Assembly (NCBI GenBank): GCA_030641525.1
Contig: DAOWHH010000003.1
Span: 1 to 53,557, forward strand
Direction of reading: 5' to 3'
DNA: 53,557 bases
Source of the DNA: a bacterium
GTDB lineage: Bacteria > Patescibacteriota > Minisyncoccia > Phycocordibacterales > UBA12079
Part shown: positions 27,445 to 42,873 of the stretch, in pieces
How the letters are laid out: each line of letters opens with the position of its first letter
How positions within the stretch are numbered: the stretch's first letter is position 1
Notes under the pieces: generated by a model
What the model saw: the letters and a program-made list of their open reading frames with translations, nothing else
The model's database searches: none
Told to the model about the DNA's origin: nothing
Position numbers and translations under genes: made by a program

Positions 27445-28284
27445 ATGATTAAAGAAGAAAAAGAAAAATTAAAAAAAATAGCAAAAACTATTCGTGAAGA
27501 AATTATTAAAATGATTTCAGAGGCTGGTTCTGGTCATACAGCAGGATCTCTTGATATGGTGGAAATTTTGGTAGCAATATATTTTAATATTTTAAAATAT
27601 GATCCAAAAAATCCCGATTGGAAAGATAGAGATTATCTTATTTACTCTCATGGGCATACTTGCCCAGCTCTTTATGCTGTAATGGCTGAGGTTGGGTTTT
27701 TTCCAAAATCAGAATTAAGAACATTAAGGAAATTAGGGTCCCCTTTACAAGGTCACCCTCATAAAGAATGGTTAAAAGGTTTAGAAACAAGTTCTGGTCC
27801 CCTTGGTGAAGGGCTTTCGCAGGCAATTGGTATGGCTCTGGCTCATCGTATAAATGTAAATTTTCAAAATTCTGATGATAAATATTTTTATTGTTTGATG
27901 TCTGATGGTGAATTTCAGGAAGGACAAACTTGGGAGGCCTTAATGTTGGCTGGTAAAGAAAAATTAAATAAACTTATTGCTATAGTAGATAGAAATAATA
28001 TACAAATTAGTGGAAATACTGAGGATGTTATGCCTTTAGAATCTTTTAAAAATAAATTAGAATCTTTTAATTGGAGTGTTATGGAAATAGATGGTCATAA
28101 TTTTGAAGAAATTATAGGTGCGATTGAAGATGCAAAAAAGGTTTTAGATAAACCAATAATTATTATAGCTAATACTATTGCTGGTAAAGGTTTTAAAGAA
28201 TTTGAGGGTGATTATCGTTGGCATGGTAAAGTTCCCACTCCAGAACAAGCCAAAGAAATACTTAATGATTCAATAGGAAAATAA
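27445..28284 (+). CDS. Transketolase, N-terminal (TPP-binding) subunit
   Basis: SGHTAGSL, LQGHP, SSGPLGEGLS, SDGEFQEGQTWEA, WHGK. Confidence 0.93.
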   Translation: MIKEEKEKLKKIAKTIREEIIKMISEAGSGHTAGSLDMVEILVAIYFNILKYDPKNPDWKDRDYLIYSHGHTCPALYAVMAEVGFFPKSELRTLRKLGSPLQGHPHKEWLKGLETSSGPLGEGLSQAIGMALAHRINVNFQNSDDKYFYCLMSDGEFQEGQTWEALMLAGKEKLNKLIAIVDRNNIQISGNTEDVMPLESFKNKLESFNWSVMEIDGHNFEEIIGAIEDAKKVLDKPIIIIANTIAGKGFKEFEGDYRWHGKVPTPEQAKEILNDSIGK

Positions 28285-28287
28285 AAC

Positions 28288-28370
28288 CTCCGGAGGTTGA
28301 ACCTCCGGAGGTAAATATGGAGAGGTTGTTGAGCCTCTCCAGAAAATCTCCGGAGGTTCAACCTCCGGAG
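28288..28370. repeat. Family A inverted doublet upstream of the RAYT, with a degenerate third hairpin between the copies
   Basis: Copies at 28288-28310 and 28348-28370; TGGAGAGGttgttgagCCTCTCCA at 28318-28341. Confidence 0.92.
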
Positions 28371-28434
28371 GTTTTAAAAAAAATATTAGAGGGACAAGAT
28401 CTCCAGAAGTTTATTAATTAAATAATTTATTTCT

Positions 28435-29103
28435 ATGAAAAAACCCTCTTTTTTAAATAACCATATTTATCATATCTATAATCGTGGAGTAGAGAAAAGG
28501 AATATCTTTTTAGATGATCATGATTATTTTCAATTTATTCATAATCTCTATGAATTCAATGATGTAAATCCTGTTTCTAAATTAAAAAATAGTATCTTTC
28601 AATCTACGGAGGTTGAAAGAGAAAATAATAAAAATGAAAGAGAACCGTTAGTTGAAATATTAGCTTTTGTATTAATGCCGAATCATTATCATTTATTATT
28701 GAGGCAATTAGTGGATGATGGTATATCTAGGTTTTTGCAAAAAATAGGAACAGGGTTTACTATGAGTTTTAATCAGAAATATGATAGGGTAGGTTGTTTA
28801 TTCCAAGGAAGATTTAAAGCTGTTTTAGTTGAAGAAGAAAGTCATCTTTTATATCTTCCTATGTATATACATTTAAATCCTATTAAAATCTCCGGAGGTT
28901 CAACCTCCGGAGATTGGGAGTTTCTGAAAAATTATAGGTGGAGTAGTTTACATGATTATATTGGAAAAAAGAATTTTCCATCAGTAATTTCAAAAGAATT
29001 TTTATTGGATACATTGGGGAGTTCAAAAGAATATCAAGAAGAATTAAAAAGTTGGTTGAAAAAAGATAATAATTTTAAAGATATAATAGATGAAATCAAA
29101 TAA
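28435..29103 (+). CDS. REP-associated tyrosine transposase (RAYT; HUH Y1, IS200-like fold)
   Basis: YHIYNRG..K..IF, MPNHYHLL (HUH), G.LFQGRFKA, YIHLNP (catalytic Tyr), YRWSS; flanked by palindromes. Confidence 0.92.
   Translation: MKKPSFLNNHIYHIYNRGVEKRNIFLDDHDYFQFIHNLYEFNDVNPVSKLKNSIFQSTEVERENNKNEREPLVEILAFVLMPNHYHLLLRQLVDDGISRFLQKIGTGFTMSFNQKYDRVGCLFQGRFKAVLVEEESHLLYLPMYIHLNPIKISGGSTSGDWEFLKNYRWSSLHDYIGKKNFPSVISKEFLLDTLGSSKEYQEELKSWLKKDNNFKDIIDEIK
28890..28912. repeat. Family A element inside the RAYT coding sequence
   Basis: CTCCGGAGGTTCAACCTCCGGAG, read as SGGSTSG. Confidence 0.92.
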
Positions 29104-29121
29104 TTTTGATTTTTATAGATA

Positions 29122-29146
29122 TTCCGGAGGTTGAACCTCCGGAGGT
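29122..29146. repeat. Family A element downstream of the RAYT
   Basis: TTCCGGAGGTTGAACCTCCGGAGGT. Confidence 0.9.
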
Positions 29147-29195
29147 AAATTCAAAAAAGGTTGAATTTCACGGATTTTTTTATTATGTTTAATAT

Positions 29196-30278
29196 ATGAA
29201 TAGAAAAAAAGGAAAGAAAAAGGTGTTTGTAGGTATGTCGGGAGGAGTGGATTCTTCTTTAACTGCTGCTTTACTCAAAAAACAAGACTATGATGTAGTT
29301 GGTGTTTTTATAAAGGTTTGGCAACCGGATTTTGTGGAATGTTCATGGATGGAAGATCGTTTAGATGCGATGAGAGTTTGTGCTACTTTAGATATTCCTT
29401 TTTTGGATTTGGATTTGGAGGATATATACAAAAAGGAAGTTTTTGATTATATGATCAATGAATATGAAAAAGGTAGGACACCTAACCCAGATGTGATGTG
29501 TAATAAGAAAATTAAATTTGGTGGATTTTTAAAATTTGCTTTAGAAAAAGGAGCTGATTATATTGCTACTGGTCATTATGTTAGATTACAAAAGGGAAAG
29601 CTTTTAAAGGGTATAGATGGAAACAAAGATCAATCTTATTTTTTATGGACTTTGACTCAAAAACAATTAAAACATTGTGTATTTCCTATAGGTGAATATA
29701 CAAAACCACAAGTAAGAAAATTGGCGAAAAAATTTAATTTAAGTACTGCTCAAAAAAAAGAAAGTCAAGGTTTGTGTTTTGTTGGGAAGGTAGATATGAA
29801 AGAGTTTTTAGAAAGATTTATTCCAAGAAAAAAAGGTAATGTTTTGAATCAAAAAGGAGAAACCATAGGTGAACATGACGGTGTATATTATTATACTTTA
29901 GGACAAAGACACGGATTTGAAATTACAAAAAAGAGGATTGATGATAAAGCTTATTATATAATAAGGAAAGATTTTGAAAAAAATACACTGATTGTTTCAG
30001 ATAATCAATCTCCGGAGGTTGAACCTCCGGAGATTGGGGTTAAGGGTGGGGGAATAGAGTTGAGTAATGTTAATTGGATATCTGGGAAAAGTCCTGATAT
30101 AAATAAAAAATATTTAGCTAGAATAAGGTATAGGCAGTCACTATTATTGTGTAATTTAAAAGAAAAGGAAGGAAAATTAATAATTAATTTTGATAAAACT
30201 CAAAAAACAGCTTCAGAAGGTCAGTCTGTCGTTATTTATGATGGAGATATTTGTTTAGGGGGAGGGGTTATAAATTAG
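29196..30278 (+). CDS. mnmA: tRNA 2-thiouridylase MnmA
   Basis: MSGGVDSS, TPNPDVMCN, ATGHY, KDQSYFL, ESQGLCF, YTLGQR, GQSVVIY. Confidence 0.97.
   Translation: MNRKKGKKKVFVGMSGGVDSSLTAALLKKQDYDVVGVFIKVWQPDFVECSWMEDRLDAMRVCATLDIPFLDLDLEDIYKKEVFDYMINEYEKGRTPNPDVMCNKKIKFGGFLKFALEKGADYIATGHYVRLQKGKLLKGIDGNKDQSYFLWTLTQKQLKHCVFPIGEYTKPQVRKLAKKFNLSTAQKKESQGLCFVGKVDMKEFLERFIPRKKGNVLNQKGETIGEHDGVYYYTLGQRHGFEITKKRIDDKAYYIIRKDFEKNTLIVSDNQSPEVEPPEIGVKGGGIELSNVNWISGKSPDINKKYLARIRYRQSLLLCNLKEKEGKLIINFDKTQKTASEGQSVVIYDGDICLGGGVIN
30006..30036. repeat. Family A element inside mnmA
   Basis: CAATCTCCGGAGGTTGAACCTCCGGAGATTG, read as QSPEVEPPEI. Confidence 0.92.
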
Positions 30279-33998: not shown

Positions 33999-34030
33999 AA
34001 AATAAAAAAGTACATTTTATTTTTTTATTT

Positions 34031-34157
34031 ACTGCACAAAAACTACGACCGTGGTTTTTGTGCAGTTTTTGTTAATCAGGTTTTTAGAATCGGAGGTTCT
34101 GAAATCGGAGGTCCAACCTCCGATTCCACAATCTCCGGAGGTTGGACCTCCGGAGAT
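34031..34157. repeat. Palindrome cluster: one family D copy plus family A variants
   Basis: 34031-34066 ACTGCACAAAAACTACGACCGTGGTTTTTGTGCAGT; 34103-34125 AATCGGAGGTCCAACCTCCGATT; 34131-34157 ATCTCCGGAGGTTGGACCTCCGGAGAT. Confidence 0.88.
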
Positions 34158-34359
34158 GATTATGAAGACGGGAGGTGCGATCTCCACAGATTATAAATCA
34201 AAAATAAATTTGGAGAGACATAATCTTTCTGAATTTTATAAATATAAAGCTGTAATAAGATTATTGGTATGAGGGTTGATAAATAGATATAATATCTATA
34301 TTATATAAAGCAGTATTGTTTTTCTTTAGTAAAATTTAATCTTTGAAGGAGTTGGTGAT

Positions 34360-35027: not shown

Positions 35028-35052
35028 CTCCGGAGGTTGAACCTCCGGAGGT
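35028..35052. repeat. Family A element upstream of proS
   Basis: CTCCGGAGGTTGAACCTCCGGAGGT. Confidence 0.92.
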
Positions 35053-38420: not shown

Positions 38421-38450
38421 ATCTCCGGAGGTTGAACCTCCGGAGATTTA
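38418..38450. repeat. Family A element overlapping a stop codon
   Basis: TAAATCTCCGGAGGTTGAACCTCCGGAGATTTA, a perfect 33-bp palindrome. Confidence 0.92.
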
Positions 38451-42785: not shown

Positions 42786-42873
42786 CTCCGGAGGTTCAAC
42801 CTCCGGAGATTTTTAATTATATCAAATATTGACATTGCATTGATAAACCTCCGGAGGTTGAACCTCCGGAGGT
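42786..42873. repeat. Family A inverted doublet (42786-42808 and 42849-42871)
   Basis: A TTCAA-orientation copy followed by a TTGAA-orientation copy. Confidence 0.92.

Follow-up and report, generated by a model that had tools for sequence, protein, structure and literature searches.

Palindromes of the REP type in and around a RAYT-like gene in a small genome of the candidate phyla radiation

The stretch of DNA described here, called the window throughout, is made up of the 53,557 nucleotides (nt) of contig DAOWHH010000003.1 from the Patescibacteriota assembly GCA_030641525.1. It holds a system of repetitive extragenic palindromes (REPs) and a REP-associated tyrosine transposase (RAYT) in a small genome of the candidate phyla radiation (CPR) type. 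The RAYT-like gene is flanked on both sides by copies of a short palindrome, and the same palindrome is found in frame within its coding sequence, once complete and once as a half copy. The features of the locus are as follows, with the evidence for each in brackets.

28288 to 28310, no strand: upstream flanking REP copy 1, centre base G (perfect match)
28318 to 28341, no strand: imperfect palindrome TGGAGAGG...CCTCTCCA, lying between upstream REP copies 1 and 2 (read from the sequence)
28348 to 28370, no strand: upstream flanking REP copy 2, centre base C, 65 nt 5' of the start codon (perfect match)
28435 to 29103, plus strand: RAYT-like gene of the HUH (histidine, hydrophobic residue, histidine) single-tyrosine (Y1) type, 222 amino acids (aa), HUH at residues 84-86, catalytic tyrosine at 144 (open reading frame, profiles, model)
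28601 to 28617, plus strand: half REP, a relic, encoding STEVE (residues 57-61) in the loop that joins helix 28-40 to strand 73-80 (pattern search, orthologues, model)
28890 to 28912, plus strand: perfect REP encoding SGGSTSG at residues 153-159, in the coil after the tyrosine helix; the palindrome extends to 28887-28915
29122 to 29144, no strand: downstream flanking REP with 1 mismatch, 19 nt 3' of the stop codon

The REP follows the 23-nt pattern CTCCGGAGGTT[G/C]AACCTCCGGAG (CTCCGGAGGTTSAACCTCCGGAG), which matches the window 12 times at up to 3 mismatches, all of the matches having 0 or 1, where 100 shuffles gave an expectation of 0.00. At 28890-28912 the match is in frame and has 0 mismatches. 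The 222-aa open reading frame (ORF) on the plus strand reads YIHLNPIKISGGSTSGDWEF; LPMYIHLNPIKISGGSTSGDWEFL around the tyrosine motif and the insert, and codon arithmetic places the motif YIHLNP at Y144 to P149 and SGGSTSG 3 residues beyond it, at residues 153-159. The half copy, AATCTACGGAGGTTGAA at 28601-28617, is identical to the element at 16 of 17 positions (1 mismatch) and encodes STEVE, which the same arithmetic assigns to residues 57-61, N-terminal to the HUH motif H84-Y-H86. Half patterns with up to 2 mismatches occur 22 times in the window against 0.01 expected. A preliminary description of this DNA had reported both internal elements, the perfect one translated just after YIHLNP and the half one ahead of the HUH motif, and both are present exactly as it had them.

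The window gene encodes, to judge from profiles and a structure model, a Y1 HUH enzyme of the TnpA-REP type. The protein passes the gathering cut-off of Pfam PF01797 (Y1_Tnp) with 26.2 bits against 23 over residues 69-146, and reaches 50.7 bits against NCBIfam NF047646 (REP_Tyr_transpos), which lies below the equivalog cut-off of 80. In an alignment of 85 homologues, H13, N83, H84, H86, G120 and Y144 are invariant. The Y---NP signature of class 2 is present as YIHLNP in the window protein, with N148 conserved in at least 90% of the sequences, and is replaced by Y[IV]NLNN in one large clade. A Pfam scan of the window protein detected no DnaA-like helix-turn-helix domain. The AlphaFold2 model, computed from the 85-homologue alignment, has a mean predicted local distance difference test score (pLDDT) of 89.4 and a predicted template modelling score (pTM) of 0.86; it places the HUH motif on strand 84-91 and Y144 on helix 135-151. 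Its best Foldseek match is 4ER8, the E. coli TnpA-REP bound to a REP hairpin (E 3e-7, TM score 0.67 on the target), followed at ranks 2-10 by chains of ISDra2 and IS608 TnpA with E values of 1e-4 to 1e-3, while a sequence search of the Protein Data Bank with the family profile gave weak matches, the best being ISDra2 TnpA at E 0.04. Both inserts fall in predicted surface loops, as had been proposed: residues 41-72 (loop 1) form a coil leading from helix 28-40 to strand 73-80, with pLDDT values of 81, 51 and 70 for its blocks, and residues 152-159, between the tyrosine helix 135-151 and helix 160-166, are coil with a block pLDDT of 82 (loop 2).

In the palindrome, two arms of 11 nt each enclose a single central base, either G or C, which is the sole mark of its orientation; with the usual flanks the arms span 13-15 nt, and the element is a near-perfect GC-rich palindrome of 23-31 nt. 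Folded as single-stranded DNA, the copies reach -14.6 to -16.3 kcal/mol (z -6.8 to -7.4); examples are the 35-nt stretch 28282-28316 around upstream copy 1 (-14.6 kcal/mol, z -6.8) and the loop-2 copy at 28890-28912 (-14.6 kcal/mol, z -7.2). A GTAG or CGTC tetranucleotide is not present at the foot of the hairpin, and the copies in the window have A/T-rich flanks (AAAT/AAAC ... ATT/GTT). A terminator role was considered and set aside; a simple scan flags the two upstream copies as terminator-like on the minus strand only, with nothing at the internal copies. The window's assembly (G000) has 584,555 bases in 18 contigs with about 30% G+C and is 87% complete. It contains 13 perfect copies, 10 of which lie on the window's contig (binomial p about 1e-8 by our own arithmetic), and 33 copies of a 15-nt core, 13 of which lie there. 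The REPs are thus concentrated around the RAYT gene, since this contig makes up only 9% of the assembly, with the caveat that repeats often assemble poorly. A second RAYT paralogue (C2, 37% identity) is flanked by a different palindrome, with 12 copies in the genome. Further copies of the first family are dispersed along the window.

848 to 907, no strand: pair of REP copies, 848-870 with centre G and 885-907 with centre C (pattern search)
34107 to 34155, no strand: two variant REP copies side by side, within a stop-to-stop frame of 88 aa that has no family match
35028 to 35050, no strand: dispersed REP copy (pattern search)
38423 to 38445, no strand: dispersed REP copy (pattern search)
42786 to 42871, no strand: pair of REP copies, 42786-42808 with centre C and 42849-42871 with centre G (pattern search)

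The ORF at 34006-34269 that spans two of these copies was considered as a host gene, but neither Pfam nor NCBIfam has a family that matches it, and it was left out of the count as probably intergenic. Overlapping tandem copies occur elsewhere in the assembly (C3:10488-10517, C3:57381-57410 and C5:10997-11026) and can be read as a 15-nt period made up of a 10-nt palindrome, CCTCCGGAGG, and a 5-nt spacer, TTSAA. Since 15 is divisible by three, a reading frame would survive the addition or removal of one such unit. The imperfect palindrome at 28318-28341 resembles, by eye, the REP of the orthologous RAYT locus of genome G003 (L007; GGAGAGGTCSGACCTCTCC), and may be what is left of an older form of the repeat.

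A second ground for placing the half copy of loop 1 beyond chance is given by three orthologues of 66-72% identity (L003, L004 and L005) that have a whole palindrome at the homologous position, S[TV]EV[QE]PPQ[IV]. The full palindromes read TCTACGGAGGTTCAACCTCCGCAG in L003 and TCTGTGGAGGTTGAACCTCCACAG in L005, and L004 has its own likewise. The window copy has the left arm CTACGG in common with L003 and is without 12 nt of the right arm, which encode PPQI. Judged from these alignments, the window's half copy is a decayed, inherited copy, that is, a relic. The stretch 28596-28630 still folds, with a 24-nt hairpin at its 5' end (-5.7 kcal/mol, z -3.8). This hairpin, at 28596-28619, is a new one of 10 pairs, formed by the half copy with the upstream CTTTCAA and centred on ACGG.

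The recurrence of such copies was surveyed in 61 genomes, G000 and 60 relatives of the same order, 45 of which contain the protein. The analysis covered 86 loci (31 from the initial searches and 55 fetched), leaving out most partial matches, matches with internal stops and a weak group matching residues 73-168 only, and the HUH and tyrosine landmarks were placed by alignment to the family profile. Each palindrome no more than 150 nt away from a gene end gave a probe of 9 nt, loop and 9 nt, which was searched in the coding sequence of its own locus with up to 3 substitutions. Flanking palindromes were found at 80 of the 86 loci, and 42 of these 80 have a cognate copy inside the gene. The copies lie before the HUH motif at 37 loci and after the tyrosine helix at 14, with 9 loci having both. 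All but 2 of the 53 cognate matches fall in the two loops (51/53), one of the 2 being an upstream copy included through a doubtful start codon, and none of the 53 lies between the HUH motif and the tyrosine. When the same probes were searched in the genes of other loci, 45 of 6800 pairs matched. The palindromes are specific to their loci, examples being GGACATCSGATGTCC, GACGGACGTCSGACGTCCGTC, TTGAGAGGTCCGACCTCTCAA and ATCCACGGAAGC-AAGG-GCTTCCGTGGAT, and some proteins have the same peptide in both loops (NLRGPTSQ[IM]V in L018) because the locus's own palindrome sits in each. Homologues therefore do carry their own flanking palindrome at the two loop positions, and the window's arrangement is more than a single isolated insertion. 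Neighbouring copies have the direct orientation 85 times and the inverted one 82 times. A fixed orientation scheme had seemed plausible from the window, where the centre bases alternate G-C-G-C-G, but the overall counts show no rule.

Internal and flanking copies also change together. A set of 35 copies from ten loci, selected solely by the invariant tip GGTTSAACC, was examined for covariation in the outer stem, and 9 of 14 pairs were found to change on both sides. The covariation score was 0.485 against 0.167 in shuffles, none of 500 shuffles scoring as high, and 90.6% of cells pair, in comparison to 33-49% after a shift of the partner by 1 to 3 columns. The same stem variant is found in the in-gene and flanking copies of a locus, for example CTCCGG in the window and CTGTGG in L005. 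The exception is L006, in which the in-gene copy is like the palindromes of its relatives and unlike its own flanks.

In-frame copies are found beyond the RAYT gene, most clearly in the gene that follows it.

29196 to 30278, plus strand: mnmA, the next gene (NF001138, 417 bits)
30010 to 30032, plus strand: perfect REP in frame in mnmA, encoding SPEVEPPE (pattern search, alignment)

The MnmA proteins of E. coli and S. pneumoniae are 6 residues shorter at this loop. The in-gene RAYT copy as source of the mnmA copy was considered and rejected: both are followed by ATTGGG, but they have different centre bases and their left flanks do not match. Among 19 mnmA orthologues (L097-L115), 9 contain at least one in-frame, GC-rich, genome-specific palindrome. 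Most of these sit in one of two loops, around residue 133 and residues 276-283 in the numbering of the window protein, and L109 has an extra site near residues 298-301; those at residue 133 are often inverted doublets. The G003 mnmA carries in its second loop the REP that belongs to the orthologous RAYT locus of the same genome, at an insertion point slightly different from that in G000. The two copies may, from this alignment, be separate insertion events. RAYT and mnmA stand next to each other in five genomes that represent three genera: besides the window's, these are G002, G007 and G010, where both lie on one contig and are separated by no more than about 150 nt, and G012, where their match ranges overlap. 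From this conserved adjacency it follows that the RAYT gene sits at a fixed chromosomal place and does not itself look mobile.

Within G000, a core copy is present in 7 of the 495 ORFs that are 100 aa or longer, in comparison to 42 of 80 RAYT genes in the survey. By Pfam name the hosts are mnmA, a PriA-like protein (2 copies), enolase, a pol III delta'-like protein, an RNB/S1 protein (at its C-terminal end), an LTD/PKD protein (2 copies) and the RAYT itself; the priA, eno, holB, rnr-like and LTD/PKD hosts are assigned by ORF position and Pfam name only. Cores of both palindrome families lie in five of these ORFs (L032-L036: PriA-like, LTD/PKD, enolase, pol III delta'-like and RNB/S1) at C3:55417-55458, C18:10348-10446, C5:10439-10457, C3:51257-51275 and C2:7625-7639. 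Insertion may carry a cost for the host gene: a RAYT homologue in G048 (contig C32, L094) is frameshifted and split into two frames at its loop-1 palindrome, and one in G010 (contig C10, L095) stops inside its loop-2 palindrome at 162 aa, without the C-terminal part; both are single cases in draft assemblies.

The integrity of the locus was examined in public contigs. A separately assembled contig of 17,754 nt from run X1 spans 28250-30150 with 0 differences, although X1 is possibly the source sample and so does not count as independent DNA. A 225-nt contig from another study spans 29976-30050, including the mnmA copy, again with 0 differences. Contigs of four public runs over 28250-30150 contain no joint at a REP; as contigs drop rare variants, this says nothing on mobility. 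Two apparently truncated genes of G002 (L092 and L093, on contigs C16 and C17, with 47-residue N-terminal matches) were considered as genes cut at loop 1, but are actually contig ends. Both contigs end in the same sequence at RAYT residue 47, just before the loop-1 position. Repeats within genes thus seem to break assemblies.

On balance, we think it probable that the in-gene copies are selfish, locally hopping REPs that survive in tolerant loops only and are kept in the same way as the flanking copies. Ordinary REP copies would have landed in the enzyme's own gene as the enzyme, acting mostly near its site of synthesis, putatively moves or refreshes these palindromes with a preference for those nearby. 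Such copies would survive only where extra residues are tolerated, namely the long loop before the HUH motif and the coil after the tyrosine helix, and only in frames and orientations free of stops. A copy that had landed would be inherited, after which it would either stay matched to the flanking copies or decay. The likeness of the copies could be maintained if a copy were inserted anew or replaced at a site already used, or if it were corrected with a hairpin as template. In IS608, the enzyme recognises hairpins of single-stranded DNA and inserts beside a short target that matches the flank of the left end. With targeting of the IS608 type, a used site would remain a target, which would explain both the re-use of the same loops and the likeness of the copies. 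The preliminary description had offered self-targeting at tolerant loops and functional internal sites as alternatives. Of the two, the data lean toward self-targeting: in-frame copies occur in unrelated genes, the window's loop-1 copy has decayed and L008 has no internal copy, and in two relatives a broken or truncated gene coincides with an internal copy.

Several observations weigh against this reading, some of them from a tree of 85 proteins built with the loop columns removed and with L088 excluded, as it is without HUH and tyrosine; it is a quick tree, and its relatives are not independent. Loop-1 copies are clustered, requiring 17 changes in comparison to a shuffled mean of 28 (0 of 300 as low), and loop-2 copies require 9 in comparison to 13.1 (1 of 300 as low). 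Internal copies are present in 24 of 29 rows in one clade, 13 of 17 in the window's clade, 5 of 29 in another and 0 of 9 in a fourth. From this clustering it follows that much of the pattern is inherited, and independent insertions need not be frequent. The loop-2 copies of L001 (the window's locus), L004, L005 and L006 have a common frame and centre base and are followed by DW[EK]FL, while L003 and L007 are without a loop-2 copy. The two-loop layout is thus, as far as alignment and tree can tell, largely inherited, with several gains or losses. The copy of L006 speaks for vertical descent over recent re-insertion, at least on sequence likeness. Inherited copies that match their own flanks and remain perfect hairpins would also fit selection for function, and the arms of some internal copies (18-20 nt in L005, L009, L010 and L011) are longer than those of the flanking copies. 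Finally, contigs of the four public runs over 28250-30150 contain no form without the internal copy, although contigs drop rare variants.

Alternatively, the internal hairpins could be working parts of the element, an explanation we hold to be unlikely. The enzyme would bind the hairpins of its own gene, as single-stranded DNA or mRNA, and so limit its expression, or the four hairpins would organise the substrate. This would fit with the recurrence of the same two positions across proteins of 30-40% identity, each with its own palindrome, with internal copies that stay perfect and co-vary with the flanks, with flanking copies at stereotyped distances from start and stop codons, and with internal stems of 13-14 pairs that reach -14.6 kcal/mol as DNA. 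Against this, 38 of the 80 flank-bearing loci are without an internal copy, two clades have 5/29 and 0/9 rows, and the window's loop-1 copy has lost an arm while the gene is still intact. The orientation relative to the flanks is random (85 direct, 82 inverted), and in-frame genome-specific palindromes are also found in mnmA, where no such role is expected.

Another explanation is that one or a few ancient insertions have since evolved in place, the enzyme moving nothing now, with template-switching repair preserving the palindromes and local gene conversion preserving their likeness to the flanks. The clustering on the tree is what such a history would leave, and the loop-2 copies of L001, L004, L005 and L006 agree in frame, centre base and right boundary as one inherited insertion would. 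The loop-1 left arm CTACGG common to L001 and L003, the resemblance of the L006 internal copy to those of its relatives and not to its own flanks, and the RAYT-mnmA adjacency kept in five genomes point the same way. Against this stand perfect, consensus-identical copies that cluster near the RAYT gene and lie in several unrelated genes as well as between genes, and catalytic residues that are invariant in 85 sequences, as expected of an enzyme still in use. In addition, the mnmA loops of G000 and G003 carry the current REP of their own genome at slightly different points, and so look like separate insertions. Overall we regard evolution in place alone as improbable.

A further possibility, which we consider more doubtful still, is that the in-gene hairpins form a built-in feedback device. 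The enzyme would recognise them on the lagging-strand template or in the mRNA, tying its own level to the repeat family, and a gene with four hairpins could evolve a new specificity in one step, the REP association then belonging to a lineage resembling subclass 2.1 of the TnpA-Y1 enzymes. Such a one-step unit of specificity would explain the joint change of all copies at a locus. That the internal copies are an artefact, whether a chance match, a pseudogene or a mis-assembled repeat, is very hard to credit, for although repeats break assemblies and two G002 contigs do end at RAYT residue 47, chance predicts 0.00-0.01 matches per window, the 222-aa frame is open with conserved motifs on either side of each insert, and the X1 contig, though possibly from the source sample, covers 28250-30150 with 0 differences.

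Part of each enzyme's amino-acid sequence is set by the DNA hairpin that it presumably recognises, and both change together. The approximately 80 loci with locus-specific hairpins match each enzyme to its hairpin as in a natural table, and the rules by which Y1 HUH enzymes recognise hairpins could be derived from it. In these reduced genomes, essential proteins also contain small palindromes at a few tolerant loops, which gives CPR bacteria a source of variation in protein length.

Among known systems, the IS200/IS605 insertion sequences (IS608, ISDra2) have the same fold as the window protein. In contrast to these, the gene here looks non-mobile, with paralogues of 30-45% identity and a conserved neighbourhood, and both of its ends are the same palindrome where IS200/IS605 elements have distinct left and right ends. 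The E. coli TnpA-REP (RayT, 4ER8) is the best fold match, with HUH, a single tyrosine and Y---NP. Its gene is likewise flanked by its own dispersed hairpins, and both systems have low copy number and divergent paralogues, each with its own repeat. The window family differs from it in scoring below the NF047646 cut-off, in having no GTAG tag and in its almost perfect palindromes with loops of 1-3 nt. A search by terms found no mention of internal copies in Ton-Hoang et al. 2012 (PMC3333891).

In-frame palindromic repeats in housekeeping genes, many of them for replication and repair, have been described by Di Nocera et al. 2013 (PMC3733652), who also recall the Rickettsia palindromic elements (RPEs) and report different REPs at about the same recB site in two Xanthomonas species. 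The intragenic elements covered there are GTAG- or CGTC-tagged REPs or longer RPEs, from Proteobacteria and a few other phyla. The window's palindromes are likewise in frame in housekeeping genes, but are untagged, 23-31 nt long and found in CPR genomes, and their commonest host is the RAYT gene itself.

By motif, the family resembles subclass 2.1 of the TnpA-Y1 enzymes (Bertels RAYT group 1, 'TIRYT'). Table 1 of Quentin et al. 2018 (PMC6006769) gives NH[YF]H, FQ, Y[IV]HLNP, an SS tail and a median of 238 aa for this subclass, and the window family has PNH[YF]H, LFQG, Y[IV]HLNP and WSS at 215-250 aa, an agreement seen by eye. The same paper reports no REP-like sequences near subclass 2.1 genes, in contrast to the 80 of 86 loci that are flanked by palindromes here. 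On its motifs the family is a candidate member of subclass 2.1; should the link be true, a lineage thought to be without REPs has them.

The closest precedent is found in subclass 2.4. The preliminary description had held that the well-studied proteobacterial RAYTs have REPs only in their flanks. That is upheld for the proteobacterial enzymes, but REPs within genes of subclass 2.4 have been published. In the sections of Quentin et al. 2018 (PMC6006769) that treat this subclass, REPs within tnpA-REP genes that leave the frame intact are called a 'unique feature of subclass 2.4', with the inserts usually placed between HuH and Y, where the protein is variable and peripheral, and REP inserts in unrelated genes are also recorded. 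The taxa given are Cyanobacteria, Bacteroidetes and various phyla, CPR being unnamed in that text. Our literature searches turned up neither a paper that treats REPs or RAYTs of CPR genomes nor a further report of REPs within genes. As in subclass 2.4, the REPs of the window both flank the gene and sit inside it, in a variable part of the protein and with the frame unbroken. Unlike the inserts described there, the copies lie before the HUH motif and after the tyrosine helix, with 0 of 53 cognate matches between HUH and Y, and the family motifs are NH[YF]H, FQ and Y[IV]HLNP, where Table 1 of that paper lists NH[IFV]H, WQ and YIxNNP for 2.4. The phenomenon itself is therefore a published one, to which the present locus and its relatives add CPR bacteria as hosts and new sites within the protein.

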